From Styela clava (Eukaryota), in contig NC_135254.1 of assembly GCF_964204865.1 (NCBI RefSeq), forward strand, positions 10,726,001 through 10,790,000: a stretch of DNA of 64,000 nt. The letters are read 5' to 3'. The translations under genes were made by a program, and so were the position numbers. The stretch's first letter is position 1, and the number at the start of each line of letters is the position of its first letter. Below are positions 2,190 through 43,029 of this stretch, one piece after another. The notes beneath the pieces were generated by a model. It saw only the letters and a program-made list of their open reading frames with translations, searched no databases and was not told the DNA's origin.

Positions 2190-2472
2190 TCAAGCATCAT
2201 ATTCATTTTCAGGCATTGAATTGATGTACGGATGTTCTATTGTTTTACCATCATCCATTTCTTCGTATTGATGATCTCTATCTTTTATTTCCTCATAAAT
2301 ATGCGGGATTTCATAATTTCCATCTTTCTCTTCTCTTATCTCATAGTTTCCGGAGTTCAGTTGTGATGTTTGAATTTCATCAAATTTTTCATAAGAACTC
2401 GGGACGTCACTAACAACGTTATTCATCTCTGAAAGACTTTGTGGTTGAGTTGCGATTTTTTGAGAATTCCTT
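2190..2472 (-). CDS. Duplicate of the terminal cytoplasmic exon of receptor A1 (candidate alternative last exon)
   Basis: Intact acceptor (tcttcacag|AAGG) and an open frame to TGA. About 5 aa differ from 4289-4571. No TM exon lies directly upstream; it sits in a ~2.1-kb tandem duplication. Confidence 0.6.
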
Positions 2473-3198
2473 CTGTGAAGAACAATAAGTTAAAGATATT
2501 TTATTTTATAATATTTTTCGAAATCGTTTCCGAGATCAATTTGCTTTGATTCATTTAAATGGAATATTTACTATGAACACATTTCACAATTATATTAGTA
2601 AATTTAAAAAAAAATGAATCTAATAAATTTTGATCGTATTTAGTGATAATATTTACTGCCTTGGAGAAATTACCATTATAATGTTTAGTACAAGGTTATA
2701 TTATTTAGTTTATACTACTGTCGAATAACTCATTCTAAAACGTAAGGGCAGTCAGCTAACTAAGAAAATCATTCGAGCACTATATTTTTACGTTGTTACG
2801 TATGGTTGTTCTCTATTAGTACGAGACTAAATCATTTAGTTTATACTTTGCCGAATAACTTATTTCCCAACTTAAGGACAGTCAGCTAACTAAAGAAAGT
2901 CATTCGAGCATGTATGTTTTTACGTGGTGACGTATGTTTTACGTCACAATTCACAAATACCGCAATTGATGTTATGCTACGGTTCACATCATGAGAAAGC
3001 GTTAACCAAGATTTTATATGTGATTCTTGTTTAATTTGGAAAGATCTAGATCATATTTGAACAAATACATTCAAATCTAATTATTAATTTAAGATTATAT
3101 GGTTACAAACATTATTTATATATAATCTGTTTGACTTATATTCATAGTTTTGCACAAAACAAAAACAATATTGGACCATACAAGTAAGTTCTAAATGT

Positions 3199-3436
3199 TG
3201 GGTGCTCCCGAAGTATGCGAACCAAGATGGCGGACATCGGAACGTAACATGGGTAACAGGTTAGGGTTAGGCAATAATTTTTTTCCAAATTTCCTTATTT
3301 TAGTCCTATCATCAGTTCGAAGACTAGCCAAGAGCCTCCCGTAGTATTTATACTTAAAATTATGGCCTAACCCTAACCTAGTACACATATTACATTCCGA
3401 TGTCCGCCATCTTGGTTCGCATACTTCGGGAGCCCC
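3199..3436. mobile_element. MITE with ~40-bp TIRs and internal telomere-like GGTTAGGGTTAGG / CCTAACCCTAACC motifs
   Basis: TIR gctcccgaagtatgcgaaccaagatggcggacatcggaa and its reverse complement, flanked by a direct repeat aaatgt. Absent at the paralogous site near 53650. Confidence 0.85.
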
Positions 3437-4288
3437 AAATGTAGTTATATTTTAAAGTTTCTATTACAAACACTTGAACGAAATCAGGTAATCTTTGAAG
3501 TGATATATATATTCACTATGTGGTCGTAAATTTTATCATTCTTGTATGAATGTGTCAGTTCAGGATTTCTTGATAGTGTTGATAAAAAATTACAAGAAAT
3601 TCCGTTTTAATGATAACACGCATATCCTCATTCAAATTTATGTTTAATCTGACTACTTGACAAGTCTTTATCAAGAATGTAACTAACTGAAGTGAGTAAA
3701 ATGAAAGCATATTATATTTTCTGCTCATCCTTTATTCAAAGTATTGACATGCAAGGCAAATAGGAAAGTGTGAACTCATCACTTAGTCCTATAGCATTAA
3801 ATAATAAGACGATATCACCAAGCTTCAAATTATTAAATAACAATTATTGCAAAAAGAATGTCAGTGGCACCTACAAACAAAAAAGAAACAAACTTTACAA
3901 AAATGTGTTTCTAATTTAAAAGTAAACATGGGATGGATGTTATCAGGGTAAAGAAACCATTATAAAAGAAACCATTAGCAGCCTAGATCACGTTATGCGA
4001 GTTATACCAATCCAGATACATCTTCGGCATATTTAACAAAACGCACCAGCAGAAGACGTCATAACACTTGACTTGCATTTATTAAAAAATCCGAATTTTA
4101 CATCTGCGATACTGACGAAAAATAAACGTTCATAATTTGAACAACAGAAAAAACATGAACCAATATGCAATGTTATTTTTGTTTCAATAAATATCAGTTA
4201 ACACAAGCGCAGAAATTCAAGAACAAGTAGTAATAGTTAAATTCACAACGAAAATAGCAATGAATGATCGCCATTCATATTCAACATG

Positions 4289-7200
4289 TCAAGCATCATA
4301 TTCATTTTCAGGCATTGAATTAATGTACGGATGTTCTATTGTTTTACCATCATCCATTTCTTCGTATTGATGATCTCTTTCTTTTATTTCCTCATAATTA
4401 TGCGGGATTTCATAATTTCCATCTTTCTCTTCTCTTATCTCATAGTTTCCGGAGTTCAGTTTTGATGTTTGAATTTCATCAAATTGTTCATAAGAACTCG
4501 GGACGTCTTTAACAACGTTATTCATCTCTGAAAGACTTTGTGGTTGAGTTGCGATTTTTTGAGAATTCCTTCTGTGAAGAACAATAAGTTAAAGATATTT
4601 TACATGTAGGCTTTTGAATAAGAAACAATGGATTTTTTTCTTGAATCGCTTCTATTATAGAGGAATTAGGCGTCATTGTGATCGTTGGACACAAAAAACT
4701 AGACGAAAGTGTGAGAGCACATAATCTCAGCCATTATTCCGGACATTGAGATTGGATATGCGGCTGTATAAAAAGTTTCACTTTTCTGACTAAATTTAAA
4801 GGAAATACTAAAAAATTTTAAACATTTTATATACACATTTTATTGTTGTATCGAACAATTCTCACCTCATTACTCTGCATTTACGAATCAGCAAAACAAT
4901 TCCAAATAAAATGGCTGCAAGAATCAATGTGACTATGGATGAGATAATTGCAACCAATAGAATGTTGTGTTCTGCAATATATTTCAATATATAATAAGAA
5001 TCATAAACCTCAATAAATTTATCAGGTGCGACCACAAACAACTACACAACAGTAATGAAAACGGGTAAATATCAGTTGTAAAAACCAGAAAGTCAGTGAG
5101 CATATTGTACCACAAAATAGTAGTTCAGAAAATCGAATTATGCGCACTTGAGACTAATGTCTCTTATAATTTGTAAGCTATATAATCTTACCACTAGAAT
5201 TCGTTGTAGTAGTAGTGATTGCACTGATGGGAGAGAGAATGTTTATCTCCGTAGTTTTTGTGTCATTTGCAATGGCAGACAATGCGGAAGTATGTGTCAT
5301 GTCAGTAGGAGTTGTAAATTCATGATATTTATTTGTTGTTGTCATTTCAACGGTTGAAGGGGTGGGCGTTGTTTCACAGGTAGTGTCTTTTGAACATTTG
5401 GTCGTCTGAAGAAAGTAATTGTGATTTAGCAATATTTCGATTCAATATATGTACGATAATTTTTTATTTATTTCAACGGTTTTTTAAATCTGTATAATGT
5501 TCTTCAAAAAGTTGAACAAATATAAAAATGCTCACAAAAATATTGATTCACATGCTAATGAAAAATATCGAAAGTGAATAATTTAGATGAATCAGAAACC
5601 TTTTTGGTAATTCGTCAATAGCCAGGTCTTGCGACCTGAATCAGAAATATTGAAGATTCACTTTTGAAAGTGCAGCTTATACATTAATATAGTATAAACT
5701 AATAAAAAAACATAGAATGATAATCATTTTTCTTTTAAGCACTTTAGAAGATCAAAAACTATTAAATTACTACAAAAAGTGGCTTTCCCTATTTTTTACC
5801 TCAAAATTAGAACCAATGCAATTATTGGGCCCCATCCTGCTCGAGTCAATGCATGTCCGATTTCTTATTTTCATCATAGAGCTGCAGTAACATAAACTCC
5901 ACGATGACCAGGTTTCCCAGTATTTCCCTACACAGTGTAAACATAATCATACGTACGATTCCTCTTTTTATTGATTTTATTCATGGTCCATATTCCAACT
6001 ATATCATATTCTAAACTTTATGCTCTTTCAATTTGTTGAATCTTACAACTAAATATAGATTCAGAGCCAGGTTTTTTTTGTCATAATTGAAACTAAGTTA
6101 AGTTGGAGTTCGTGTAAATTTATATTCCTTTTCACCGTTTGCGTTATATTAAATCTTATTTTTAACATTTTATACTGTTTTAAGCACACAGCAAAAGTAA
6201 ATTCGCGCTGGAGTTGAATGTATTGAAGCTATGTTGAATAAATATAGCAGTTTGACCTGTCACTTCATCACTTCCTATTTTTTTTTACTTTTATCAGAAA
6301 AATTATGCTAAACATTCGTCTCAACTCGGTTGTCAACAGACATTTTACTCACCGATAATGCGTTGACACACCAATCCTTTCAATCCTGTTGCTCCAGTGT
6401 CACAGTCCATCGTATGCCATAGAAGATTTGCGTCATAAGTTTTTTGTTCACCTATCGATACACAAGTCTGTGTTCCACTATCAGTATCATGATTGTTTGG
6501 TTCCCCTTCATCCCAACGAATGAATGAAAGGTTTGTTCCGTCGTTCCATTTAAACATCGACTTTGATTTGTCATAAACAAGTCCAATGTAGAATGTGTAT
6601 GGTTCTCCTGTAATAAGACATATCATATCGTCACGCTAATAACCGAATTGCGTAAGTCATTTTTGGCGATTTCGAGTTTTTTTTATAAAATAGGTATTTA
6701 TGTAATACTGCGCACCTGTCTGTTAAATCAGATTTTATTTTCAAGAATTCTGAAACCCATAAAAATGGAGATTTAGTATGACATGCACATTTGTGCAATT
6801 GTTTCGTCATAATGAATTATCATTGTTACAACAGGACTATTGTGACGTCACAAAGGAAAATAACCTCAGCGAAGTATTTTCGAGTTTTTGCATCTCGGAT
6901 TCTAGCTTAGCGCGTATTAATTTAAATTTATACTACAGTATAGGAAGACGTGCACTTGTGATATTCACTGTCCGAGTCCAATTCACCTTGGTTGGCTTTT
7001 ATATTGGGTGCATTGCTGTTTTATTCTTTATATTTATTCTTAGTCTAATTTCGGTGGGTGTGCAGGACATGTTATATTGATGAAATATATATTTTTAAAC
7101 ATAAAAAATAATGTAATTGAAACTGATTAGCTATTTTGGGGATTAGACATTGTAGATACTGAGAATTACATTCGTTTTTGGAATGTTTTGTTTTCAGGAC

Positions 7201-10200
7201 TGGTGCATATAGTAAAGTTGCAAAATTGCGTATGTCCCCAAGTCATACACACATTTCTGCCTAAGTCACAGTGCACCATTATGACGTCACTTAACTGCGT
7301 CATACAAATTAACTTAAATCCGGCTACGATCAAAAAATTGAACCATGGCAAATCATTGACTCTCAATGGCATAACAATATCATTAGGAAGTTTTTTACGT
7401 TTTTCTCAAAACTGCTAAAAATGACTTACGCAATTCGGTTATTAGCGTGACGATATTGTTTTATACTGCTAGGGCACGTCTAGACAAGTGTTTTAGCGAT
7501 GATCAATCGGTTGAAGCGTTAGCTCTAACTGTGTTGGCGTAGCAGATTACGCATCTTCGTTTCAACAGCCATCCCACGTCACCCGTGGGTGTAATGAATT
7601 GGTCAGAAAATGCCAAACAGTTATAGAATCTCCCTATATATTGTTAGATATCAGTGGTTTTTGTACAGGTCCGCGTTCGCGTCCTTGTGGGTGTCATATC
7701 CCACAGGGATCGGACTTATTGCATTTCGTTCGTAATGCCATCAACGACCGAAGTTATTATATCGCCGCAATACATACACATTCATTGACTTTCAATACTT
7801 ATAATATTACACGTACCTGATCCATCAAAAATAAGTGTTTTTAGAAATCCTTGAGTAATATCATCCTTTATTAATGCTAATTCACTTTCTTTATTTTTGC
7901 AAAAAGTTTTTGAATCTTTATAAGATCTTGTACTACCACCCGGTGAAACGTAATATTCATAATTTCCATTGGAAAACCAGTTTCCTCGATCTGTTTCACA
8001 AATACATCAAATAATTGAATAATATCAGTAACTTGAAAAATGCACAGTGAAAATGCACGGTGGAACGAGATGGCATCAATTATTGCCGGCACTTACTTCA
8101 ACATACCAAAGTGAAAAATAAAAAGAAACGTTGATATATTAACTCATTTAAATTTTCCGATCATAATCCGTTTTAGCACCTTTCGAATAGAGCGAATAGC
8201 ATAGTAAATAGCACGGCGTGATTCAGTGAAAATATTCGTAACTTTATTACAAAAAGATGTTTGTTTTGACGTGACTTATGTGAAGGAGATTGACCCATTG
8301 TTCATATATATCTTATCTCTTTTTTTGCAACGATTGTAAGAAGTGGTCAGTTTAATGGAAAATGAAGACGTAATAATCTAATTTTAAAATGAGTTATTCA
8401 TTCTCACTCAGTGTAGTCGGAGCTGTGGTCAATGAAGGCATAATTACATTGCAGGAAACGGATGGCGTGCAAATCTAAAAACAACGTTCGATATTTAATC
8501 ATGCATGTAGGTGTTTCAAAACCGAACTAACTATAAGTCCAAAATTCAATATTTCATGTAGAATGATCCAAAAATAGTTTTTCTGCGGCAATGAAATCCA
8601 AATTAATGGGGTCTGGACTGAAGGATTTGCAAGTTACATACAAAATTGGATTATGGAAATATTTTAATACGTCAATCAATCTGTTTAAATAATAACGAAA
8701 TAGACTAAACTGACTTGAATAAATTTACCTGGGTGGCAATGCCAGGTGTAGCTAAATAATATCGTCGATGAAGTTTGAGTACAAAAATCGATCAAACGAT
8801 TGCTATATAATGTAAGCGTGCCTCAACAATGTGTATGAGAAAAAATGTTATTCCCATCTGTTTATTATAGTTTTGGAACGACATGCTAGAACTTTATAAA
8901 ATCCTGAACTTGAATGTAATAGTTATTAATACAGCTAGATAATGAGCAAGAAATTTGATAGGAAACAAATTAATAATGAGTTATATATGTAAATAACGTT
9001 CACTTTGGACTGTGTTGCCGTATCATTGCATGAGTTTGGACCAATCCTTGAGCTGTCAACACAAGTTCGGTTACGCTGCCTTATTCCCGGGCATTCACAA
9101 CTTCCCCAAGATTCCCACGATCCCCAATTCCGGCCTGCAGAAACATACAGAGAAAAAAAGATTTTTATTTTCAACTAATATGATATCAGTAAATTTAAAT
9201 CAAGATAAACTGTTAGCATAGATGTGCGAGGTATAAATAGTGGCAAGATAACAATATTAAAACTTTTAAATCTTATCAGAATCGTTCCTGCACTAATAGG
9301 TAATAGTTAGTTTTGTACTGAATATTTATGATAAAATTCAGCTGGCAGGTTTATAGCATTTTTTTTATTTATCAAAAACTGAAAGTTTTGTTAACAGTAA
9401 ATTAATGATATTGTGCAACTACTTTCTTTAATAAACATAATTTATCCAATTTAAAACATTTAACTATATCTCCAAGTTAGTACCTACACTAAAGTCATAA
9501 GATTTTAACAGGAATGTTTATCTGAGATATCAGGGAGACGCTTTGAGTAATAAAGGCAATGATAATCATATACCAACGCTCACGGGCATACTACAATTCA
9601 AAAGCATTTGAATCAGGGGCCCGCTCACTGCCTCAAATTCGACAATACAAGTGCGAGAATATACTTAGATCGGGTCGGCACGCAGGTTCGAATCAGGGCC
9701 GGATTTAGACGATGTGAATCCCTGGGCCAGGGGCAAGCCCTGTCAAGCGTGCCGAACTTGGCACGCGAGCCCATTTATTCGGCACGCGAGCGAGGCTTCA
9801 GAAACGAAATCATTTTTCTTCCGAAAAAAAGTTTCAATACTCTGAATTATCTGTTGAAACTCTGCTTCCGTTTAATCATTATTGTTTGTTAACAATCCGT
9901 TATTTATTTAAATTCTTTTTGACCATTCATGACATATGGCTTCAAAGAAATATTTTATGACTTCACAACTGAGTGAGCTATCGACAAATTTGGTCGGCAC
10001 GCGGAAGAATTTTGTCATTAAATTCAGTCGATTTTGGCACGCGAGCCGGAAAAGTTGCCCTATGCCTAGGCTATGCTAATTGTAAGGGCCCTCTGTAACA
10101 ATGACGTCACATCAAATCTGTCATAACGACATATAAGTGATTGCAAGTTCTTGTATTATGATATCACAAGTTCAGTTTTTGAATTCTGTGAGTTACAAAC

Positions 10201-13200
10201 GTTTAGCTACCGCCAAGATACTTACGTACAGAACGTCATGGCACCAGAAAAGTCGACTTCATAAAAACTCGTTTATAATGAGCTCTGGCATAGTAAAAAT
10301 TATATGGAATATTACTTACATTCTCGGTTGATTAGATGTATCATTATATACAGAAATATATAGGTATTTTTTTCATAAAATTAAGATATTATTACGTTAA
10401 AAACTGTTCAGGTAGTTAAAAAATTTTTCAAGAGTTTTTCTAAGTTATACATATTCATTTATTCGGTCATATTTCTAATTTTCCAATTTTTCAATCGGTA
10501 AATATTTGGAATTATTACCTTCATTAAAAAAATATGAGAACTATAAAGTTTTAAACTGACATTATTCTGGAACAAGCCTTTACAATTCAAAAACGATTTA
10601 AAATGAATAATAGTTCAAAATTGATTGTCAAGTCCTTCGAAGTTAGAGACCCCAAGACTTTAGCCTACCTTGCCCAATAGTATATTCGGCCCTGGTTCGA
10701 ATCCCATGAGTGATGTGACAATGCGCAAGAGTGTTGGACTTCTCAACGTCATAGGGTGGTTCACGTAATGGCTTATCGGTTGCGTCTTCCTCCGCCGGCC
10801 ACGTTTGCAGACGCCTTGCGCTACAGCCTGAGAAGGCGTGTATGGGCAAGCCATCGATATTTGTGGTGTTTCGACGAGTTTATTGGGAATAAAAAGCAAT
10901 GGCAAGTTTCTACATAAGTTTTTCTTTGTTAGGTTTTAACTTATTAAATACAAAAAAATAACACAGCCATTTTGAACAAAACTGGCAAAAAACTTGACTT
11001 ACAACAATTCTCTTCAAACAAATCTCTGAATATATTGAAGCTATTATGAATAAACATAGCAGTTTTGCCTGTCACCTCATCACCTCATTTATATTTTTAT
11101 TTTTAATATAAGAAAAAAACGCTAAATATTCGTTTTTATTCGCTGTCGCAAGTTATTTCACTCACCGATACGTCGTTGACACACCAATCCTTTTGGTCCT
11201 GTTGCTCCTATGATACAGTCCATCGTATGCCATAGAAGATTTGCGTCATAAGTTTTTTGTTTACCAATCGATACGCAAATCTGTGTTCCACTACCAGAAT
11301 CATGATTGTTTGGTTCTCCTTCATCCCAAAGAGTGAATGAAAGGTTTGTTGCATCATTCCATTGAAACATCGACTTTGATTTGTCATAAACAAGTCCAAT
11401 GTAGAATGTGTATGGTTCTCCTGTAATAAAACATATCATATTGTTTTACAATGCTAGGATATGCTTAGACTAGTGTTTTAGTGAGGGTTAAGCGGTTGAA
11501 GCGTCAGACATAATTGTGATGGCCATGGCATTGCAGGTTATGCATCTCAGTTTCCCGCGCCACCCATGGGTGTAATATTTTGGTCAGACAATACCAAACA
11601 TCAATAGAAGCTCCTTATATATTGTATCTTATAGTTTTGTACAGTGATTTGTTCGAGTAAATAAGCGTTATATCCCGCAAGGAATGAAATTATTGCATTC
11701 CGTTCGTAATGTTATCAACGACCAAAGTTATTATATCGTCGCAGTACAAACATATTTATCGGCTTTAAATACTTAAAAGTAATGCACATACCTGATCCAT
11801 CAGAAATGAGTGTTTTTATAAATCTTTGTGTTATTTCATTCTTTATTAATGCTAGTTCGCCTCCTACATTTTTGCAAAATGTTTTCGAATATTCATAAGA
11901 TCCTGAACTACTACCCGGTGAAACGTAGTATTCATAACTTCCATTAGGAAACCAGTTTCCTCGATCTGTTTCACAAATGAAATATCAAATAAATGAATAA
12001 TATCAGTATCTCGAGAAATTCGCAGTGAAAATGCACGGTGGAACGAGATGGCATCAATTGCAGGCACTTGCTTTAACTTCAATACCGAAGTGAAAAATAA
12101 AGAGAAGCCTTGATATATTCACGCATTTAAATTTTTCGACTTTAAGCCGTTTTAGCACTTTTTGATTAGAGCGAATGGCATAGTAAAAAGCAACGACGTG
12201 ATTCAGTGGAAACATTCGTAACCTAATTACAAAAGAGAAGTTGGCTTCGACGTGACTTATGTGAAAGAGAATAACAAGCCCATTGTTTATATCTCTTTTT
12301 GCAACAATTGTAATAACTGGTCAGTTTGCTTGGAAATGAAGACGCAACAATACAATTTTAAAGTGAAGTTTTCATTCTCACCTGGTGGAGTCGGAGCTGT
12401 GGTCAATGAAGGCATAGTTGCATTACAGGAAGCGTCTGGCGTGCATATCTAAAAGCAACGTTCAATTTGTTCAATCGTACATGTAAGTGTTTGATTGGAA
12501 CTAACCGTAACTCCAGAATTCACGACATTATGAAAAAAGGAAGAATTTTTCCTCAACAATAAAATCGAAATTAATGGTGTCGAGACTGAAGGATTTGCAA
12601 GTCATATTTAAAATTACAATTGGATTATGGGATTATTTTAATACGTTAGTCAATCGGATTCAATTAATAACGAAATACGACTAATAACTGACTTGAATAA
12701 ATTTACCTGAGCGGCAATGCCAAGTGTAGCTTAATATTATTGTTGATGAAATTGAGTACAAAAATCTACCAAACGATAGTGTGCATGCGTAAAAATTTAT
12801 TCTTATTTGTGAGTTATAGTTTTGGAACGAAATCTTAATCAACATGCTACAACTTTATAAAATCCTGAACTTAAATTTAATAGTTATCAATAGAGCTAGG
12901 ATAAGTGCAAGCATTTTGAACGGAAACACAATCAAAATGAGTTATATATGTGAAACAAGTTTACTTCCGACTGTTTTGCCGTATCATTGCATATGTATGG
13001 ACCAATTCTTCCACTGTCAACACAAGTTCGGTTACGCTGCCTTATTCCCGGGCATTCACAACTTCCCCAAGACTCCCATGATCCCCAGTTCCAGCCTGCA
13101 GAAAAATACAGAGTAAAATGAGAGTTAAATTTTTTACAACTAATATGATATCGGTAAATTGTTAATGTAGTATAGACGGTAGAAACAATAGCATAGCTGT

Positions 13201-14535
13201 GCAAAGTATAAATAGTAATAATATGACATTATTGAAACTTTTGAACATTTCCAGAATCTTTCCTACACTCATAACTAATCAAAAGTTGCTAGTTTTGTCC
13301 GAGATACATATGATAAAATTCAGCTGACAGGTTTTGTTCAATTTTCTTCCATCAAAAACAGAAAGTTCTGCTGGCAGTAAATAAATGATATTGTGCAACT
13401 GATTTCTTCAATAAACATAATTTATCTAGTTGAATCTAAAGCATTGGACCTAGATAACCCAATTCTCATTTTCCGTAGAAGAATTTGCCCAAAGAAAAGT
13501 TATAGTCGCACTCACTCGGAATAGGAGATACTCGTATCTTGATTAAAATACGAGGAGTGTAATCTGAAGTAAGGTATTTTGATTTTTGATGGTGCAACAT
13601 ACACTATAGCGAATATCTGTTATATCGAAGTCAATGGCATTAAAATATATAAATAGTTATTTGCATAAAAAGGACATTTTCCACAAATTAAGTATACATT
13701 TATTGCAAACAGAGTTTGTTACCGATTAATCGTTGACAGACAAATCCAGTTGGTGCATTCGCAGCGCATTCGGAGTCATACCACGGTAGATTTGCATGAT
13801 ACGCATGCCACCACCCCATAGCAACACAATGTTCAAGTGGATAACTAGAAGGTTCTCCTGTGTTCCAATTAGTGTAGGTTATTTCTGAATTGTCCTTCCA
13901 TTTGAAGATATTGCTTGTGCCAACTTCCTTCAATCCAATATAAAATCCATATGGTGTTCCTGTAGAAAATAAAATGCTTTGGCGTAATAGAACGTTTTGT
14001 CGTGTGTAATATTTGTTGTGTGGCTGGTTGGGGCTGTTGGACATAATTGAATACATGTGCAAATATACGAAGACTGACGAATTAGAAATATTACGAATTC
14101 AATTAAACAAACGTATGAATGATTCTTGCGCAAATACCAAAACATTTTTATGACTGTGATGGTAAATAACCTTGAGCAAATTCATTTGGAGATTTTGGGT
14201 AAAACGTAAAATGTCCTATTTACCTGAGGTAGCTGAGACTTGATTTTGAATAAACGTTTGAATTTTGCTAGTTTTTATCATTGCCATCTCGCCATCATTG
14301 TTTTTACAGAATAATTTACCATCAGCATTTGATTTTAAATCTCCTTTTCCAGATACGTAGTATTGGTAACTCCCAAGTGCATTCCACTCACCTCTACCTT
14401 GTCGCAAAAATAAACAGTTTATGAATAAGCACATAATTTGAAAGACGTGATGACATATAATATATACCAACCTGCGCTAAGGACGGCAATCGTCCTAGCA
14501 ACTAATCCAATGTATATTAAAAATTTCTCTCTCAT
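4289..14535 (-). CDS. Receptor A1: SP-(CTLD-TSP1)x3-mucin-TM-Tyr-rich activating-type tail, ~819 aa, 15 coding exons
   Basis: Exons 14535-14472 (SP), 14397-14224 + 13959-13723 (CTLD1, EPS/WYD), 13095-12965 (TSP1), 12448-12382 (linker), 11965-11792 + 11420-11166 (CTLD2, EPN), 9134-9004 (TSP1), 8474-8408 (linker), 7990-7817 + 6607-6353 (CTLD3, EPN), 5927-5800 (TSP1), 5405-5192 (Thr-rich), 4971-4866 (TM ILLVAIISSIVTLILAAILFGIVLLI-RKCR), 4571-4289 (tail). All introns are GT-AG with compatible phases; total 2460 nt, no internal stop seen. Confidence 0.88.
6628..7453. mobile_element. Non-autonomous DNA transposon (MITE), TA target duplication
   Basis: TIR tcgtcacgctaataaccgaattgcgtaagtcattttt at both ends with TA on each side. 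The empty site catatcata|ttgtttt is in the paralogous intron near 11440. Confidence 0.9.
10655..10865 (+). mobile_element. tRNA-derived SINE-like element
   Basis: Pol III B-box GGTTCGAATCC at 10694-10704 with an A-box-like motif upstream. GC-richer than the flanks. A second copy is on the opposite strand at ~56035-56245. Confidence 0.6.
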
Positions 14536-15824: not shown

Positions 15825-16698
15825 TATATGTCCATTTCGTGTTCACAATTTGCACGAGGCTCTATTGCATTCAAATAACCATTTTTGATTGTTACTGCAG
15901 ATTTCAAGATTAGACACCGGGCTGTCATCCTCTGTATGCCAACAACAAACGATAATGTTACTTGAGCATAGCGATCAATTAGACTTCTTTTGCCACAATG
16001 ACATATTCATCACCTTTAGGAACAGTAACTGTCCTTTGTATTCTATTCTGACTGCCGTGGTCTTATCAATTTCCTCATATACATCCTGTTCACATGATTT
16101 AAAACTTGGATTGACGGGTGTTTCAACCTTAATGTAGTCATCTTCAAGACTCCCTTCTTCAGCTAGACATTGACGGAGTGCGCTCGAGACTACTTTGATT
16201 GTTGATTCACTTTGTATTTCAGCGAAAATTTCGTTTCGACTATCCACAGGAGAATTTCTATCGTCTATTAATATTGGTATTGTAGGTAAAATCATATTCT
16301 TTATGACAAATTTATTCTTATTTGAAACATTGTTGAGACTTTCTTTAGTTCTCCGGGATTCTTCGGTCTCTGTAGATTTTTGCTCGTATTCTATTGCACT
16401 ATATGGCATAATATCATTTCCTTTTTTTATGCCTGTGGCTTTGGGTAAGGTCGGCAAAGTACTGCGCTACAATATTTTGATTATGCTACTATTTTTGGTC
16501 TTTCTTCTCATTGAATTTTGTTTTGTTAGGATAACTTCCGGCGGCAGTACAACCTATAATGACACAGTTTTCATTTCCGCCATTATTATTGGGTTCTCCA
16601 GTAAAACATTTTTCATAAGATTCAATCTCGCCATCAATCCACGCAAAGAAGTTATTTCTCACTTTTTGTAAACCAATAAAAAAGCCATATGGCATATC
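15825..16698 (-). pseudogene. Remnant of a third receptor class: half CTLD exon (EPN) fused directly to a Tyr-motif cytoplasmic exon
   Basis: Acceptor tgtacag| then MPYGFFIGL...WIDG...GEPNNNGGNENCVIIG, running out of frame into a hydrophilic tail-like ORF (PYSAI, DYIKV, VYEEI) with stops and frameshifts. Paralog at 31660-33790. Confidence 0.7.
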
Positions 16699-18456: not shown

Positions 18457-20573
18457 AGCTCAAATCGTTTTATCCAGCCTCCTACAAACCCTATCCAATC
18501 GTCTTATTTATTTCACAGACCTACAAAATATTGCATGTTCTGTTACTTCCCTGCATTGCCCTATTTTAAAGATATGACTTTAATCCTTCTCAGCGATTAA
18601 TGAACAGTATTTATGTATGCAAAATGGATATATTTTTTCAGTTTCATGAAGTTTAGACATCCCACTCGTTTACATTATTTGTTTTGACGTGTTTTATATA
18701 CGTGGTTTCTACATCACCACGCTTTCCTATTCTTGCTAATATACGAACATGCATGCAGCTATACGTTATGTTGTTTTGAGTCGATAAATTTATAACAAGA
18801 CATTTACACAATGTGAATTATATGAAAAAAAGATGGTGAAACTTATAGAGATCTTATAGTAAGTTTCTTATTGTTCACACTTGTTCTGGAATATGTAACA
18901 CCAAAGTAATCAATTGTATTGGTGGACAAGAGCCCTCTCCTAAATTTATTGTATGTTTTTCCACATATGTGACTTTTGGTTAAATACAACTATTATAAAA
19001 TTAAACTCAGTTACTTCGTAGCGCTATTCATAAATCGTGGTTGAGCCTAACAAATCTTGTAACATGGCCCTGATTAGGTAACAAAATTTTAGACAAATAA
19101 TGGCTGTGACCTCCAAGTCAAGAAGTTTGATTAAAATTCATATGAATTTACAATGAAAGCTATATATGTGAAGGTAAACTAGTAATATATATTTGCGAAA
19201 TGCGTTTTAAATTCAATGTTCGATAAAAAATAAATTCAAAGTAGTTAGTAAAATTCTCTGACCAAGTTTATTGCATATATATATTTGAATAAATGTCAAA
19301 TTCTAACAGGATTGTCAGCTCTACCACTAGAATCAGATGAAATTTAGTTTTGCATATTTCATACCTTTATTGCGAGATTTGATAGACAAAACGGAAAAGC
19401 TAGATTTGATAAAAATACCCATCGATTAAATAAAATTGGTAGTGTAAATATTTATATATTGGAATGAAATACTGTTACCATGACGAAAAAGGCAATGCTA
19501 TGCATGATTGAAAAGTATGGATTCAACTTTATTTATGGAATCTGTATATAAAATATAAAGCAGTATAAGGCAGAACAGCGTAACATATTCGAAAACTAAA
19601 AAATAGTCAAAATTTACGGTAAAAATAACTTGAAAAACCCTTCCAGATAACCAGACAAATGAATATTGTTCCCAATACATGTTTATATCATGGCATCAAA
19701 GTAGATATAGTTTGGTAAAGATTTTAACAACAAAGGCGTTTTGTCTAATAACCGATCCGGGTCCGATCTGTAAATAGTTAACCAAGTAATCATTGAAGTA
19801 ATCAAATGTTTCATTGAAGAAGAATATCATGACAATTTTCTAAGTTTCGTTCACACCTTCAATGAAAATAACGCTTTGGTAAAGCAGTTTGAATTGGATT
19901 GTTCAAATTCATAATTATTTTACAAAATCAATTAAAGTAAATTCATTGTGAATTTAACTTATATATTGGTACTATGCTGGCCTTTTTGTCAGTTTTCTTT
20001 TATAAATTGTCGACGATGGGGCGAAGTTGTTGAACCTTCATCATTCAATCAATTTAAAACAAGCTTCAAAATTACTATCGTAAAGTTTATTGGGATTAGA
20101 AAATACCTTTTCAAATAACAAAGCAGGAGCAGTTTATAATCAACCCGGGGCGCTCCAGAGGTGTGTGTACCAATATGGAAGTAGTTAATTTTGTTCGCCT
20201 ACTTTACATCAAGTTTTGTGAAGGTACTGAAACCTGTGGGCAGAGGGCATGTTAACTTGACTAACACAGACAATCCCAAGTTCGTAATACAACCAAAATA
20301 AAGGGAAATCGGGATAAAATTATGGCCTAACCCTAACCTGGTACACACCCTACGGAAGTAGCCAACCAGATGTATAATATATTAGATAATCAACAGTTAC
20401 CTCCAGAAGCAACATGGCTCGTAGTAAGCATTAGTAGGTTTATTTATCAGTCTGAACCTGTTTTTCTGCTACTAATCCAATAAATATGTGATATTGATTA
20501 TAGTTTAATTTAACTTTCCCATCCTTATTTATTATTGTCAATATTTGCATATGGATCATCGTTTACTTCAATG

Positions 20574-23500
20574 TCAGCCTTCGGCATCTCCCGTGACATC
20601 GGAATTCTGATCAGTTTCAGGTTTATTGACCGTTGCATAAGTTACTTCATTGAAGTTTGAAGAATCATCTTTTTTGGGTTTCTGTACAACAGCAAGGGTC
20701 ACTTTATTGTCGTCTCCATCTGAAGATATTTCCTTTTCATCAAAGAAGTTTTCTGATTGCGAAATTTTTTTAGAATCCTCAACATTGTGTTTTTGAACCG
20801 TTTCATAAACCACAGGGGAGTTCTCGTCAGGGAAACCAGAAACCTTAATTTTTTCACTCTTTTTTTGCTTATCAACAACAGCGTATTGAGTTTCTGATAC
20901 ATCTACCGCGTCCAAATCTTTTGAGGATTTGGATAACTTTTTCGATTTTGTCTTGATAACAGCAGTATATATAGCATTGTTGTTGCCTTCTGTGGTCACA
21001 TCGTTTATCTGATCTTGATGGTTATCGGCAATGGCGTAGAGGAAATCTTGCCCGTTTAATGAGTCAACTTGATCTTCGGGTAAAAGAGAATTATTGTCTG
21101 CCTGTTCATCAGATTTTACAAACGTCTGATAACGAAGAGTTTCCGTATTTTGAGAATTGTCTCGACTAGATACTACATCTTCGGGATCTATAGCAGTAAA
21201 ACATGTTAGTGATATATAATAATGTAACACCTTATCTTGTTTTATGCTTCTCTGTGTAGTATTCCTATATGCTTTATATTCTCAATATATTTCCACAAAA
21301 TCACTGTTTTTCCTATTAGTCATATAGTTCAAATAAGATAATCATATGGTGCACATAGAAATGAGCATTCCTTTTTGTTTGTCATACATTTACTAGCATG
21401 TGGTAGACAGTAAAGTATAGGAATTCATCAACCCAGATACAATACGTTGACGTAATACTTTAAAGGAAGTTACATTAACTTACGATCTGACATTAGATCC
21501 CTCGGATTGAGATGATCTTCAATTTCCAACCCATGATTGTAATTGCCAAGCTCTGCTGTGTTTATGATTCCTTGTCCTCTTCTGAAAGCAAAACTTTAGA
21601 TTATATACATTCCATGTAAAATGAGTGAACCCTTAAAAGAATATTTGGTATTTGTTCACTATTCATAAGAGATATAATGTCATAATGTGGGATATATTAC
21701 CTTTTTTTGAGTTGCTTTGAAAGTATATAAACAATGATAAGCGCTAAAAGAAGAAATCCGCCGATAGTTCCCACGACTGGTCCGATGATTGATGTTTGTG
21801 CAGCGGGTGTAGATGGACGAAGAATACCAACCGTCGAAATGTCAGGAATTTCTGTGTGAGATAATATAAGAATTAATATATATGATCAGAAATTTGATTT
21901 AATACATTATGTTCATTTAGACAAGCCAACACATTTTCGCGAGCTGAAATTGAATGTAAAATTTTTTGCAACGCGTTGCTTGTTGATTGCTACTATATTC
22001 TGAATTGGTAATGACTGTAGAATTCTGCTCAAAGCATGTAATGTCGTACCTGCGAATGAAGAAGAAGTGCCTTGCAAGTTAAAGGTTGCGTTTGTCACAA
22101 CATACACACCGGCAGTCATGGTAGTCATTGCGTCGGAGGGTTCTTCGTTTGTGGGCGAGGTGGTTAACTCACTAGCAGTCGTAGTTAATGGAAATGTTGT
22201 TTCCGCAACAGTAGTCGTATAACAACTTGGGTCTTTTGTACAATTTGCAGTCTGTATTTTGTAATCAAGTTGTTTACATTATAGAGTCGCAATCGCGTTG
22301 CTCAATTTATTTGTACCCCTTTGTGATGTCGCATCGAGACGTTTCTAGACTTGCCGAAGTCGGCGAGCATCTTTGATTAAGATATGCGCCGTTTGTAACT
22401 GTAATTCCTAGATTATGGTTGTAAATGCAGTAGGTTGCGTATGACTTAGTTCAGTTACCGTGACCATTAGATTTTGTTTTTAGTTGTTTAGGGCTATTGC
22501 ATTTAGAATAGTTATATGTTTATGATGGAATAGGAATTATAGCTCCACTGAATATCCCTTATTGTTATTTATTTGCAGTTAAGTTACTTATCTTAATTGT
22601 GATTTAAGTTGTTCACTTTTGTAAAACCCGTTAGGGTACTCATTACCCGTTACGATACTAGATACCCATTACCCCGGTTTGGACGTATCGTATTTGTTAT
22701 CAAGACGTTATCTACACCTGCAAGTTACCTATATGTTTACTGTCATTATTTCTGGATTTGATGATTAACTTTCGACATTAACATTTAAAGTTCTGTGGAA
22801 CCTTTTCAATATAAGTTTCAAAGCAATTCAGATTGTTTGACAGTGTGGAACTGGGGAGGGATTTTGCAAGGTTCAACTAAGATCGTATCAAATTATTATT
22901 GTTTGCCGAGCAAAAGGTTCGGGGTCTACAGTACGCTAAAGTCAAACGCTAGAACTCTAGTCCAAATATCCAACACCGGCTGGCAAAATATTTGAGTCCC
23001 ACCACTGGTCATATATATATATGTAAAACAATTTTACTTCAAACTGTGATGTCGTATCGTTGCAAGCGTATGGACCAATTCTTCCGCTGTCAACACAAGT
23101 TCGGTTTCGCTGCCTCATTCCCGGGCATTCACAACTTCCCCAAGACTCCCATGATTCCCAATTCCAGCCTGCAGAAACATGCAGATTAAAATAATAGTTA
23201 TATATTTTACAACCGAGTATTTCGAAGCTATATGATATCAGTAAATTAAAATCAAGATGAACTGTTAATACATTATGAGCGGTAGAAAAAATAGCATAGC
23301 TGTGCAAAGTATGAATAGCGATGAGATGACATTATGAAAATTCTAAAACATTATCAAAATCTTTCCTGCACTCATGTCTCATAGCTAATCAAAAAAAGTT
23401 TTGTACTGAATATTTTAGATAAAATTTAGCTGACAGGTTTTTGGCGGTTTTATCGAAAACTGAGAATTCTTCTGACAGTAATTTAATGATATTGCGCAAC

Positions 23501-24925
23501 TGCTTTCTCTAATAAACATAATTTATCCAGTTAAATTTGAAACATCTGACCCAGTTAACCCAATTCTCATTTTTTTTGTAGGAGAATTTACTCAAAGAAA
23601 AGTCAGTCGCAATCACTCGTAAAATGTAAACTAGTGTCTGATTAAAATGCGGGCAGTCACAGAGATGCCAAGTGCTACTGAAATCAAACGGTATTTTGTT
23701 GGTGCAATAAGCAACAGCGAATACCTGATGATGTGATACTTTAAGCACTTTAAATCAATGCTATAATAAACTACGAGGCAGTAAACATGGCATGAATAAA
23801 ATTTACTAAATTGGAGTCAAATGTCATTAAAATATATAAACATTTATTTATATAAAGAAATAGGAATTGAGTGGCAAATTTAGTATACATTTATTACAAA
23901 CAAAGTTTTATACCGATTACTCGTTGACAGACAAATCCAGTTGGCGAATTCGCAGCGCAACTGACGTCATACCACGGTAGATTTGCATGATACGCGTTAA
24001 ACCACCCCATAGCAACACAAGGTTCAGGTTTATCACTAGACGGTTCTCCTGAGTTCCAGTTAGTGTAAGTTAGTTCCGAATTGTCATTCCATATGAAGGT
24101 ATTGTTTGTGCCAACTTCTTTCAATCCAATATAAAATCCATAGGGTTGTCCTGTAGACAATAAAATGCTTTAGAGCAGAATTTCCCAAACTTAGCTTAAT
24201 TGAGCAGTAAAAAGCATTAATGACGTGTGTGTTGCTACATAGATGAAACATTATCCTTCCTCATCCTTTCTCCTGGTTAGACACATAAATTGATTCGGCA
24301 TACGATAGGGGTCCGACAAAACTAAGATTCACAAATAGGGGTACGCGACCTAAAAAGTTTGGGAAACCCTGCTTCAGATTAATGGAAAGTTATGTAAGGT
24401 TGTATGTAAACAAGGCTGATTAGGACTGTTGGACATAATTGAAAACAGGTGCAAATATGTAAAGACTGTCGAATTAAAAATTGTCACACAAACGTATTGA
24501 GAATTCTAACACAAATTCCGAAACGCTTGAACAAAGATAAAGACCATAATGTTAAATAACCTTAAACAAATTCATTTCGGGATTTGGGGTAAAACGTGAA
24601 ATGTCCTGTTTACCTGAGGTAGCTGAGACTTGATTCTGAATAAATGTTTGAATCTCGCTAGTTTTTATCATTGCCATCTCACCATCATTGTTTTTACAGA
24701 ATGTTTCGCCATCAGCATATGGTTTTATATCATCTTTTCCAGATACGTAGTATTGGTAACTTCCAAATGCATTCCACTCACCTCTATCTGGTCGCCAAAA
24801 TAAAGAGTTTGTGAATAAGCACATAATATGAAAGACCGGATGATATATGATATATACCAACCTGCGCTAACGACGGCAACCATCCAAGCAAATATCCCAA
24901 CGAATATCAAAAATTTGTCTTTCAT
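20574..24925 (-). CDS. Receptor I1: SP-CTLD-TSP1-mucin-TM-ITIM/ITSM tail, ~556 aa
   Basis: Exons 24925-24862, 24787-24614, 24150-23914, 23168-23038, 22251-22050, 21851-21701 (TM IIGPVVGTIGGFLLLALIIVYIL-SKQLKKR), 21581-21484, 21187-20574. GT-AG, phases compatible, 1671 nt. Tail motifs AIYTAV, TQYAVV, VVYETV, VTYATV. Confidence 0.85.
22322..22783. mobile_element. Possible solo LTR
   Basis: TGT...ACA ends with an imperfect terminal inverted repeat (tgtgatgtcg / cgacattaaca), ~460 bp, absent from paralog I2. No TSD found. Confidence 0.4.
24176..24371. mobile_element. hAT-type MITE in intron 2, shared by both inhibitory-type genes
   Basis: Ends cagaatttcccaaactt...aagtttgggaaaccctg with a degenerate 8-bp TSD (ctttagag/cttcagat). 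Matching copy at 44171-44356; absent from A1, A2 and the 30-kb pseudogene. Confidence 0.75.
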
Positions 24926-30400: not shown

Positions 30401-32407
30401 TTCCGCGGCTAATTATCCAACATTTCCAACTTACCCATTAACATTTTAATTTGAATGTAAAAATTAAAATAAAACAAGGATGATATCTATTTGCGAGCTG
30501 AAAACGTTGTAAACTTCTTCGTCACAAAAATGAGAATATTCAAAAAAGTGTTTGCGTAAGAACCAGTATGGAAAACTAACGACATAAACTTTTCTTGACA
30601 ATATTAAAACATCAAAAACTACGGACTGATTTAGCACTCCTCTTTCAAAGCTAATAATACAACATTATGCCATACTTATGAATGAATGATTTGATTGTCC
30701 ACAATAGCATTAAATATAGGTATTCAACAATCTTCGATCTTATTTTCAGTACACTGCAAATAATTATCAAATTTCTAGCCGCATTAATTTTAGTTTCAGA
30801 AGAGTAATGCAGATCGACTTGCCAGAATGAAATCATAAGCAATATGATCTGACATTTCTTATTATAGAATAACTAGGCCTAATGTGAGTAATGAAGTTAA
30901 CATTTTTACACATTTAAAAATAAAGCGTTTGTGGGGGACAGAAAGAGTAAAACTTACTATCATGAGTGGGACATTTCGATAACCTTTTATTACAACGTTT
31001 TTTAAATGACAGCAAAGCGATGATTAATGAAGAATATGCTGCAGAAGAAGATACCTACTACAAAGCTCATCAGCAATGTTATGATATTATCTAGTCACTT
31101 ATGTTCGTGTTATATATTGAGGAAATCTTATTCATACAGAAACATAGTGGCATTTTAAAAAATGACAAAACTCGGATATCAAAATGTAAAAATTATAACA
31201 GGGTTGGCCTAATGCTATTTAGTTGAGATTTGAACGAAACAATTAGTTTCTATTCTAAAAATAAATATATGTATTATATTTTAATGTGAAATAAAAATAA
31301 TATCGTTTAGTGACATTTCACACACATTTGGTTTTCATAAATGAATAGTGAGTTGCGAAAATAAAATTGCAAAACTCCTAAATGCAAGTATATACAAGTG
31401 TTATAGTGATCACTGGCTCGGAGATATCTTTATGCTGTATTGTAATAAATACGGATAAGTGTGTTCCTATATTTCATAAAAATGTCTTTTTATGCATTAT
31501 AATAAAACCGTTAAATTTGAGGTGAGATAGCGGGTTTTGCAATTTTTAGGTACTGGGAATCAGAAATCGATTAGTTGGAGTTCAACTACACCAAATTAGC
31601 CTTGGGTTCATCACTACAACATGGACAACAACAGTAATTTAGAAAAACGATTTATAAGTCCATTTCGTGTTCACAATTTGCACGGGGCTCTATTGCATTC
31701 AAATATTTATTTTTGATTGTTACTTCAGATTTCAAGTTTAGACACCTTGCTGTCATCCTCTGTGTGCCAACAACAAACTGCCCGTCAGGCGATAATGTTA
31801 CTTGAGCATAGCGATCAATTAGACTTCTTTTGTCACAATGACATATTCATCACCATCACCAATAACTCTCCTTTGTATTCTATTCTGCCTTCTGACTGCC
31901 GTGGTCTTATCAATTTCCTGGTATACATCTTGTTCAAATGATTTAAAACTTGGATTGACCGGTGTTGCAACCTTATTAATGTAGTCATCTTCAAGACTCC
32001 CTACTTCAGCTAGAGATGGACGGAGTGCGGTCGAAACTACTTAGATTGTTGATTCACTTTGTATTTCAGCGAAAATTTCGTTTCGACTTTCCACAGAAGA
32101 ATTTCTATCGTCTGTTAATATTGGTATTGCAGGTAAAATCATATTCTGTATGAAAGATTTATTCTTATTTGAATCATTGTTGAAACTTTCTTTAGTTCTC
32201 CGGGATTCTTCGGTCTCTGTAGATTTTTTGCTCGTATTCTATTGCACTGTATTGCATAATATCATTTCCGATTTTTATGCCTGTGGCTTTGGGTGAAGTC
32301 GGCAAAATACTGCGCTACAATATTTTGATTTTGCTAATATTTTTGATCTTACTTCTCATTGAATTTTGTTTTGTTAGGATAACTTAAGGGGGCAGTACAA
32401 CCTATAA

Positions 32408-34503: not shown

Positions 34504-37500
34504 CTATACAATATAATCATGCCTGAGTCCGGGATCACAAGACTAGGAATAAAATTTAGCGTTTCGCTTGTTTTACCAAGAGCATCCCACCCTGTTGTAT
34601 ACAAAAGTTTTTACTTTTGTCGAAACTCCTTATGTCATCAGCTTTAGATACATAATATTCGATATTTTTATAGTCTCTGCCAACTCCCACGACGATCTAT
34701 TTAGAGAAAAAACTTTGGTACACTGGTTGTGTACATTAAAATTTATATAAAAAAAAACTCAATCGTCTTTTGGTTTTCAAAAATTTGAGATTAATATTTT
34801 TGAAAAATCATTTTCTCTGGCTACTGTTTAATAATTTCGTAAACTTTTTCAAATACCTTTGAAAAATACAACATATTTGGAGATGTATTTTTTTTAATTT
34901 TTGAACAACGTTTAATTTTAACATTGTAATTATTTCCATCATCGTTGTTATATTGAGTGTCAAACTGGAACAATTTCTCGAGTGCAGAATACATGTTTTG
35001 AAGAGAATCGACTTACATATATCACGTACCTTGGACAGAAGTAAATTCATAAAGGTTCGTGCTTTGAGTTGTTTTTGTTGATCGGGTTGATATAATGTAT
35101 GTCGATGCCGTTGAAAAGATTTTGTCCACCATATAGTTTGGGAACTGGTTTTATCCGATGTCCATATTGCCTCTAGAGTTGTCTGCTGGACTGATTGGTT
35201 GACGGAAGTGCAAAGCAAAAACAGTCTCCTTATCATAAACTGTTGGGGCGATGTTGTCAGCGTTGGCTGTTGTCGATTCGTCCCACCCAAAACCAGATGA
35301 GCCAAGAACAGCTATTTAAAAAATCACAACAACTAAGCTTCAACATTTTTGATACTTGATTCATTCAGAGTAATTTTTCATAAAAACACGAAAACCCTTT
35401 CCCTTATTTATTATTTATTTCACATCTTCGATTCTAGAAAGTAAATATTTGGTGCTATCTAAATCTATATTCTGCAAATTTTTTGATTTATATTCACAGT
35501 ATTGCAAAACTCTTACTTGTAAATTTCATGACACAGAAGATCCAGTAGCAGAAGAAGAATTTCTACGTTTACGTCAACATATATAATAAAATCTCAATAA
35601 TAACTTGAAATCCCTTTTTATCTTGAACTACCAATCAAAAAATTTGCGCACGTGTATCCAGCTCAAATCGTTTTATCCTGCCTCCTACAAACCCTATCCA
35701 ATCGTCTTATATATTTCACAGACCTACAAAATATTGCATGTCCTGTTACTTCCCTGTATTGCCCTATTTTAAAGATATAACTTTAATCCTTCTCAGCGAT
35801 TAATGAACAGAATTTATGTATGCAAAATGGATATATTTTTTCAGTTTCATGAAGTTTACACATCCCAATCGTTTACATTATTTGTTTTAACGTATTTTCT
35901 ATACGTAGTTTCTACATCACCACGCTTTCCTATTCTTGCTAATATACGTACATGCATGCAGCTATACGTAATGTTTTTTTGAGTCGATAAATTTATAACA
36001 AGACATTTACACAAAGTGAATTATATGAAAAAGAGATGGTAAAATTTTAGAGATCTTACAGTAAGTTTCTTATTGTTCACACTTGTTCTGGCATATGTAA
36101 CACCAAAGTAATCAATTGTATTAGTGGACAAGAGCCCTCTCCTAAATTTATTGTATGTTTTTTCACATATGTGACTTTTGGTCAAATACAACTATATAAA
36201 ATTAAACTCAGTTACTTTGTAGCTTCATTCAACAAATCTTGTAACATGGCCCTGATTAGGTAACAAAATTTTGGACAAATATTGGCTGTGACCTCCAAGT
36301 CAGGAAGTTTGATTAAAATTTATATGAATTTACAACGAAAGCTATATATGTGAAGGTAAACTAGTAATATATATTTGCGAAATGCGTTTTAAATTCAATG
36401 TTAGAATAAAATAAATTCAAATTAGTAAACAATTCTCCGACCAACTTTATCGCATATGTATATTTGAATAAATGTCAAATTTTAACACGATTGTCAGCTC
36501 TACCACTAGAATCAGAGGAAATTGAGTTTTGTATATTTCATACCTTTATTGCGAGATTTAATAGATAAAACGGAAAAATTGGATTTGATAAAAACACCCA
36601 TCGATTAAATAAAATTGGTAGTGTAAATTTTTATATCTTGGAATGAAACATTGTTACCAAGTCGAAAAAGGCAATGTTATGCATGATTGAAAAGTATGGA
36701 TTCAGCTTTATTTATGGAATCTTATGAATCATTTTTTTTTTCTGTTTTATCAGTGTATATATTATATAAAGCGGTATGAGGCAGAACAGCGTAACATATT
36801 CGAAAACTAAAAAATAGACAAAATTTACGGTAAAAATAACTTGAAAAACCCTTCCAGGTAACCAGACAAATTAATATTGCTCCCAATACATGTTTATATC
36901 ATGGTATCAAAGTAGATATAATTTATAAGATTTGAACAACGACGGCGTTTTGTCTAATAACCGATCCGGGTCCGATCTGTAAATAGTTAACCAAGTAATC
37001 GTTCCAAATGCACAACGTGAAAGCAACACGATACTTTCCATTGGATTTGGATCGAAATTCTGCTTTACTGCTTGTTTGTTTCATTGAAGAAGAATATCGT
37101 GACAATTTTTCAAGTTTCGTTCACACCTTCAATGAAAATAACGCTTTGGTAAAGCAGTTTGAATTGGATTGTTCAAATTCATAATTATTTTACAAAATTA
37201 ATTGAAGTAAATTCATTGTGAATTTAACTTATATATTGGTACTATGTTGACCTTTTTGTCAGTTTTCTTTCGTAAATTGTCGACGATGGGGCGAAGTTGT
37301 TGAGCCTTCATCATTCAATCAATTTAAAACAAACTTCAAAATTATTATCGTAAAGTTAATTGGGATTAGAAAATCAAAATACCTTTTCAAAAATCAAAGC
37401 AGGAGCAGTTTATAATCAACCCGGGGCGCTCCATAGGTGTGTGTGTGTATCAATATGGAAGTAGCTGAATTCATTCGGCTACTTTACATAAAGTTGTGTG

Positions 37501-38125
37501 AATGTACTGAAACCTATGGACAGAGGGCATGTTCACTTGGCTAACACAGACAGTCCCAATCTCGCAATAGAACTAAAATAGGGGGAAATCGGAATAATAT
37601 TATGGCCTAACCCTAACCTGGTACACACACTACGGGAGTAGCCAACCAGATGTATAACATAATATTAGATAATCAACAGTTACTTCCAGAAGCAACATGG
37701 CTCGTAGTTGGGTAAGCATTAGTAGGTTTATTCATCAGTCTGAACCTGTTTTTCTGCTACTAATCCAATAAATATGTGATATTGATTATAGTTTAATTTA
37801 ACTTTCCCACCCTTATTTAATATTGTCAATATTTGCATATGGGTCATCGTTTACTTCAATGTCAGCCCCTTCAGCATCTCCTGTGACATCGGAATTCTGA
37901 TCTGTTACAGGTTTATTGACCGTTGCATAAGTTACTTCATTGAAGTTTGAAGAATCATCTTTTTTGGGTTTCTGTACAACAGCAAGGGTCCCTTTATTGA
38001 GTTTCTGATGCATCTGCCGAATCCAAATCTTTTGAGGATTTGGATAACTTTTTCGATTTTGTCTTGTTTACAGCAGTATATATAGCATTGGCGTTGCCTT
38101 CTGGGGTCACATCGTTTATCTGATT

Positions 38126-41880: not shown

Positions 41881-41949
<69 letters not shown>

Positions 41950-42987: not shown

Positions 42988-43029
<42 letters not shown>

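Follow-up and report, generated by a model that had tools for sequence, protein, structure and literature searches.

A candidate paired-receptor array of CTLD-TSP1 proteins with activating-type tyrosine tails in the ascidian Styela clava

A hallmark of vertebrate innate immunity is the paired receptor system, in which activating and inhibitory members stay similar through exon exchange. In the CLR clusters, activating and inhibitory receptors with lectin-type recognition sit together; many CLRs are type II and the activating ones typically have a short tail and a charged transmembrane segment (TM) for DAP12 or FcR-gamma, or a hemITAM. The macrophage mannose receptor family carries a Cys-rich and an FNII domain ahead of 8-10 C-type lectin domains (CTLDs). 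CEACAM3 is a known exception to the activating type with short tail and charged TM (PMC7026191, PMC2832619). In excerpts of PMC7026191, its motif ends in M, is phosphorylated by Src-family kinases and binds Nck, Vav and PI3K; the receptor drives phagocytosis, and Syk is dispensable for uptake. Conversion keeps CEACAM3 similar to CEACAM1, which bears an ITIM (PMC2832619).

Among tunicates, the case described is that of Botryllus, with its Ig-type allorecognition system. An ITAM-bearing haemocyte glycoprotein of Halocynthia, named A74, was reportedly described by Takahashi in 1997. Excerpts of PMC5465252 on Halocynthia roretzi give this protein two ITAMs and a role in phagocytosis and aggregation via PI3K. 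The fester co-receptors (FcoR) of Botryllus schlosseri combine Ig and Sushi domains with ITIM, hemITAM or core motifs, have FF chains as partners and vary in copy number by gene pairs (PMC12582321, in excerpt). No paper describing the Styela array treated here was found in a literature search that reached few subscription papers; in the excerpted S. clava genome paper, the passages on 'lectin' concern MBL and ficolin.

Mapping across 464 kb around the window, a stretch of 64,000 nucleotides of S. clava, revealed an array of ~340 kb (G000:C5:10.51-10.85 Mb) in which 15 class-A and 8 class-B genes are interleaved, plus 1 truncated gene. Class A has the TM and tail on which a preliminary description of the window had focused, whilst class B has a different TM and a tail of 240-285 residues; the two kinds of tail cannot be aligned (E=9). 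We consider it likely, with a probability of about 0.6, that the class-A tail belongs to the activating member of a paired-receptor array and signals by itself, with no adaptor chain. The strongest support for 'activating' comes from neighbours that share the ectodomain but have tails of ITIM/ITSM type; these genes were absent from the preliminary description. The value therefore lies in the array, not in the tail by itself; judged by genomic criteria, the array would be a finding of weight, as paired receptors built on CTLD-TSP1 with adaptor-free activating-type tails.

Human CEACAM3 is the closest working model for the A tail. As in CEACAM3/CEACAM1, an intrinsic ITAM-like motif ending in M is linked to an ITIM/ITSM partner, the ligand domain is kept alike by exchange next to unrelated tail exons, and many genes show birth and death. 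However, CEACAMs have Ig domains and the Styela array has CTLD and TSP1, so the two are not homologous. The spacer is 7 residues in CEACAM3 and 6 in Styela, the tyrosines number two and up to seven, and the Styela tail, unlike that of CEACAM3, lies on one exon; moreover, function has been demonstrated for CEACAM3 and is predicted for the Styela tail. FcoR are likewise clustered type I receptors of a tunicate with ITIM or activating-type tyrosine motifs, and a recurrent class-B, remnant, class-A cassette is the Styela counterpart of their gene pairs (PMC12582321, in excerpt). Unlike FcoR, the Styela receptors are CTLD-TSP1 proteins of a solitary host, have no hemITAM and carry their own recognition domain in both classes; we rejected homology with, or membership of, FcoR given the Ig versus CTLD ectodomain. 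The Halocynthia glycoprotein is also a membrane protein of an ascidian that carries tyrosine motifs of its own, and demonstrates that such signalling exists in ascidian haemocytes (PMC5465252, in excerpt), but it is reported to have two ITAMs and the Styela tail has no canonical one; no Halocynthia-named protein was among the named matches of our ortholog searches. Compared with CLRs, the Styela receptor is type I with an uncharged TM and a long tail. It shares type I topology and tandem CTLDs with the mannose receptors, and its best PDB match is MRC1; it lacks the Cys-rich and FNII domains, has TSP1 repeats, a stalk, 1-3 CTLDs and another tail. Membership of that family was rejected, Pfam and the exon model giving only Lectin_C and TSP_1.

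The tail is encoded by minus-strand exon 4571-4289, the last of 15 exons (14535-4289), every border of which is AG/GT and which end in a single stop. Without exons 9134-9004 and 8474-8408, the model equals XP_077968764.1 of Styela clava (P0006) letter for letter. The latter is thus one splice form, in which these two in-frame exons are skipped; its name, 'macrophage mannose receptor 1-like', was assigned automatically by RefSeq and is a misnomer. Pfam and the exon model give a type I receptor that runs from a signal peptide through CTLD, TSP1, CTLD, the optional TSP1, CTLD, TSP1, Ser/Thr stalk and TM to a 100-residue tail. All on the minus strand, the signal-peptide exon with the start codon (14472-14535) is followed by the N-terminal CTLD on two exons, common to classes A and B (13723-14397), the first TSP1 and linker exons (12382-13095), the second CTLD on two exons (11166-11965), the TSP1 and linker exons omitted from the RefSeq model (8408-9134) and the third CTLD (6353-7990; exons 7990-7817 and 6607-6353, Pfam Lectin_C). 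The class-specific membrane-proximal TSP1 exon (5800-5927) was recognised by Pfam TSP_1 at E=5e-4, narrowly below the cut-off; it precedes the Ser/Thr-rich stalk exon (5192-5405), the TM exon (4866-4971) and the terminal exon (4289-4571). The last has an acceptor reading cacag before its first A, is entered in phase 2, stops with TGA at 4291-4289 and encodes the 93 C-terminal residues, an acidic cytoplasmic stretch. The TM helix comprises 21 residues with no D, E, K or R, in agreement with the first account of the sequence.

Contigs from runs of two studies join these exons at GT-AG: stalk to TM in runs X1 and X2, TSP1 to stalk in X1-X3, and the CTLD exons in 4/4 runs, among them the joints of the N-terminal domain and 11419/11791 of the second. 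RNA-type contigs cover the tail exon (4291-4570) with 8-31 differences, two X6 records having 10 and 31, and may be alleles or paralogues; no TM-to-tail joint was seen among the contig joints listed. Contigs of the same runs cover both classes, and an earlier annotation likewise includes proteins of both (P0007, P0020, P0033). An ESM Atlas search returned generic lectin clusters (best 0.85). Ca2+-dependent sugar-binding C-type lectins have EPN or QPD with WND; CTLD1 has EPS..WYD and CTLD2/3 have EPN..WHT, which are non-canonical, and the AlphaFold model from an 8-row alignment reached a pLDDT of only 31.

A local duplication (1364-2503 versus 3463-4602) copies the terminal exon and 3′ UTR. The duplicate exon (2190-2472, minus strand) retains an intact acceptor and differs in 5/93 residues, NYEEI having become IYEEI; it could be an alternative last exon.

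Translation of exon 4571-4289 bears out the seven tyrosines and flanks first reported: SYEQF (4492-4490), NYEIR (4444-4442), NYEIP (4414-4412), NYEEI (4396-4394), QYEEM (4366-4364), PYINS (4327-4325) and EYDA (4300-4298), and no others. The ITAM spacing with M that had been claimed for YEEI-KERDHQ-YEEM (4355-4396, minus strand) also stands, with 6 residues between two YxxPhi units and CEACAM3 as the precedent for M. The canonical ITAM, (D/E)xxYxx(L/I)x6-8Yxx(L/I) (PMC2832619), was matched in 0/16 copies of the tail, there being M at the last place and PHN before the first tyrosine, with no D/E at -3. The CEACAM3-type pattern, Yxx(L/I)-x6-8-YxxM, was matched in 15/16. Strict patterns for hemITAM (an acidic triad preceding a single YxxL/I), ITIM and ITSM gave no match in the tail of exon 4571-4289, whilst a loose ITIM ending in I was also matched by 3/16 A tails; Pfam found no family in the tail exon, tail B or tail C.

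Vertebrate motif rules assign YxxM to p85, YxN to Grb2 and YxxP to Crk. Further, pYEEI is a Src-family SH2 ligand, and the motif cited for Nck is YDxV (PMC3507883, in excerpt); YEIP is therefore a better fit for Crk than for Nck, to which YxxP had also been assigned. In 100,000 composition-preserving shuffles of the tail, at least five 'YE' (p=0.001), YEEI (p=0.013), a relaxed ITAM (p=0.018) and YxxM, YxN and YxxP jointly (p=0.03) were infrequent; singly, YxxM (p=0.21), YxN (p=0.52) and YxxP (p=0.33) lay within chance. Thus the docking motifs of the preliminary description are present as stated, but each single assignment is weak, and the tail is acidic as it said, but unremarkably so against the shuffles (p=0.54). 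Four of the YE units fall in a degenerate internal repeat and are not independent events, so these p-values carry less weight. By itself, the tail is ordinary: its short motifs belong to a type that ascidians are already known to have.

Genome G000 holds 16 copies of the tail exon, all within C5:10.51-10.81 Mb. Tyrosines Y1-Y7 are retained in 10, 11, 16, 16, 15, 16 and 16 of 16, the last lying behind a stop in 4 copies. YEIP (YxxP; 4403-4414, minus strand) is unchanged in 16/16, as are YE[E/K]I and the YIN of YINS (YxN; 4316-4327, minus strand), directly after which 4 copies stop; YxxM is found in 15/16 and exact YEEI in 10/16. Invariant columns make up 41/86 of the tail alignment. YEIP and YIN are the least variable motifs and YEQF the most, with Y in 10/16. 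This bears on a rather improbable alternative, that the A tail serves mainly in sorting, with unphosphorylated YEQF, YEEI and YEEM acting as YxxPhi signals for AP-2 uptake in a scavenger that recycles as the mannose receptor does, and signalling left to class B. The three YxxPhi matches suit it, such units doubling as endocytosis signals, as do the multi-CTLD ectodomain with MRC1 as best PDB match and excerpts of PMC2832619, according to which the ITAM-like motifs of other CEACAMs may be either internalisation or activation signals. However, the least variable YEIP and YIN are not YxxPhi motifs, the YxxPhi-type YEQF is the most variable, and one signal would be enough for sorting.

Substitution rates count both for and against the activating-type reading. 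Whole-tail dN/dS was 0.63 (interval 0.36-1.20; Nei-Gojobori, 14 distinct copies). In the four motifs named by the preliminary description dN was 0.02 versus 0.10 elsewhere (p=0.008, random windows) and versus 0.11 in the intervening codons; all seven tyrosine windows together gave p=0.33 against random windows, and a null of the best four of seven random windows, which corrects for selection, gave p=0.14. The copies are related, recombining and in some cases broken, and motif conservation is therefore suggestive only. Conservation of the tyrosines among homologues thus holds for the four named motifs but not for Y1 (10/16), Y2 (11/16) or the exact YEEI.

The class-B tails repeat Y[A/T]x[V/I], in which VVYATV and VTYATV fit ITIM and TQYAVV fits ITSM as defined in excerpts of PMC2832619. 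P0016 has six such units, a number reached in 0/100,000 shuffles, and 3 ITIM matches (p=0.007). Of 8 B-type proteins scanned, 7 have an ITIM and the truncated P0021 only an ITSM, at motif level; P0015-P0019 are modelled to the full tail end, and P0014, P0021 and P0022 are cut short. Within the window, the upstream class-B gene (20534-24925, minus strand) reads CTLD-TSP1-stalk-TM (21852-21706)-tail (21185-20534) and carries VVYETV, VTYATV and TQYAVV; the assembly has a frame break near 20577, where contigs of 3/4 runs have two extra bases. A second class-B gene (37816-44906, minus strand) has a tail exon broken by a stop and a deletion, and a second class-A gene (54343-57993, minus strand) has one CTLD and a tail ending at PYIN. 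On the minus strand there are 7 B genes, and in 6 cases the next gene is an A gene; in 5 of these cases the remnant of a third gene lies in between, as at 15978-16421 (minus strand; third tail type, from flanking gene XP_039270223). This recurrent order shows that a cassette of B gene, remnant and A gene was duplicated.

The features by which paired receptors are recognised can be set against this array. The genes are linked, the ectodomain is highly similar and a long-tail member bears ITIMs; similarity through gene conversion or recombination is seen in the per-exon AU tests given below, with a whole-domain AU test and a run test against it. The short tail and charged TM of a typical activating member are not found, the TM being uncharged and the tail 100 aa long.

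At the DNA level, class-A members share an identity of 0.896 in the N-terminal CTLD (91 pairs) and class-B members one of 0.908 (28 pairs), and A-B pairs reach 0.890 (112 pairs), one short A row having been dropped. In the membrane-proximal TSP1 exon, whole in 19/23 genes, the corresponding values are 0.909, 0.946 and 0.658; synonymous distance between the classes is 0.16 in the CTLD versus 0.62 in the proximal TSP1. A tree of the latter separates A from B with 100/100 support. Per-exon CTLD trees (22 rows) reject B monophyly (AU p=0.0022 and 0.0026) and contain mixed A/B clades with support of 97/91 and 95/88, which differ between the two exons, as exon-wise exchange predicts. For the whole CTLD, B monophyly was not rejected (AU p=0.063), and in a run-of-identity test 0/112 A-B pairs passed Bonferroni correction. 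The 1-kb 5′ flank aligns in 120/120 A-B pairs at 81% identity. Lectin exons have thus been exchanged repeatedly between classes, and exchange ends before the proximal TSP1 exon, which leaves the tail linked to that exon. Variation clusters near the sugar site, where 28 codons have a dN/dS of 1.32 (0.82-2.03) versus 0.39 (0.25-0.58) elsewhere; with an interval that includes 1, variation in these loops may be relaxed or diversifying.

These data also weigh on the view that most of the array stems from recent duplication under weak constraint, the motifs being products of the internal repeat and perhaps functionless, and the likeness of the classes due to unselected unequal crossing-over. It can point to the tail dN/dS interval, which takes in 1, to the repeat itself, to several broken copies and identical pairs and to the selection-corrected p. 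Against this, spliced transcripts occur in runs of two studies, dN/dS of the CTLD core and TSP1 exons is 0.31-0.40, and exchange stops short of the proximal TSP1 exon, to which the tail remains coupled; we regard this as the least probable of the explanations considered.

SH2 matches in G000 numbered 50, of which 30 were fetched and 8 queried against PDB. Best matches identified genes for a Syk/ZAP70-like tandem-SH2 kinase, SHP2, Csk, p85 and Crk, and, by best single-domain matches, a Src-family-like SH2 piece; pieces L064 and L076 received no name from PDB, and Grb2, Nck and Vav were not identified among the 8 queried. Aligned with ZAP-70, the Syk-like kinase covers 11-105 and 154-259 with only two residues between, and so lacks interdomain A (~47 residues), the inter-SH2 linker used in canonical ITAM reading. 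Its gene is intronless (L070:262-2133, minus strand; G000:C5:24.185-24.187 Mb). The tandem-SH2 query found this one gene and no second Syk, although split exons might escape it. Amphioxus SYK inhibits NF-kB (PMC13344425, in excerpt), so recruitment of Syk need not mean activation.

By vertebrate motif rules, a ligand on a microbe or cell would cluster the receptor and a Src-family kinase would phosphorylate the distal tail tyrosines. pYEEI may then hold a Src-family SH2 domain and possibly the Syk-like kinase, whilst pYEEM would recruit PI3K p85, pYEIP Crk and pYIN Grb2; with CEACAM3 as model, the output might be actin remodelling with phagocytosis or degranulation. On the class-B partners, Y[A/T]xV motifs would draw in SHP2/Csk and so restrain the response, and exon exchange would keep A and B aimed at the same ligands as the sugar-site loops diversify. 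A bolder version, which we hold to be rather doubtful, is that in a solitary invertebrate chordate CTLD/TSP1 parts gave rise independently to a decoy system like that of CEACAM1 and CEACAM3. In it, A and B would swap ligand-binding exons and so keep following the same ligands, microbial or allogeneic, and the multi-YExx tail would be read by the Syk-like kinase, released by its shortened linker from canonical ITAM spacing. A lectin-based array in a solitary ascidian, with activating tails that need no adaptor, would mean that paired receptors evolve repeatedly from unrelated ectodomains, coupled to a conserved set of Src/Syk/SHP2/Csk effectors; its ready tail pairs could be used to ask which motifs an invertebrate Syk-like kinase recognises.

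The two tails might instead be phosphotyrosine scaffolds with different but non-opposing outputs, serving adhesion, migration, metamorphosis or gamete recognition and not immune balance. TSP1 repeats and mucin-like stalks fit adhesion, and SHP2, which can act positively in signalling, could promote Ras signalling on B tails. Moreover, more distant Styela relatives carry at least 3 further unrelated tyrosine-rich tails (P0023, P0054, P0084), so tail diversity is not binary; P0054 has a Lys inside its predicted TM window. We nevertheless think this unlikely, since birth-and-death expansion, loop-focused change and cross-class exon exchange fit the pattern of pathogen-driven paired receptors (excerpts of PMC2832619 and of PMC13358205, section 8).

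Lastly, we sought the class-A tail beyond this species, where sparse annotation of other ascidians limits the searches. A tail search (5 matches, 18 candidates) found no orthologous tail outside S. clava; among the 15 matches to P0002 (7,987 scored) and the best 150 of 1,766 matches to P0009 (9 looked up by name) the tail occurred only in S. clava. One CTLD-TM protein from Clavelina has no tyrosines in its tail. Older CTLD relatives lie in G000 at C5:10.48-10.49 Mb, C18:15.69-15.70 Mb, C1:27.14 Mb and C3:17.08 Mb.

Several further features of the locus were recorded. The class-A gene at 54343-57993 and its neighbour at G000:C5:10793729-10797379 are identical in the compared CTLD and tail exons, and may have been duplicated very recently or reflect an uncollapsed haplotype. 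A triplicated CTLD-TSP1-stalk-TSP1-stalk block is found in the class-A gene P0005 (1456 aa; G000:C5:10619669-10634938). A further remnant of the third type lies at 31818-32269 (minus strand); the source gene, XP_039270223 (G000:C5:10.849-10.852 Mb), has a 464-aa tyrosine-rich tail. A 167-aa open frame with no Pfam match (34811-35311, minus strand) is situated within a non-duplicated insert. High-copy repeats at ~3195-3440, 6660-7450, 9720-9990 and 20110-20430, some with inverted ends (MITE-like), dominate contig depth.
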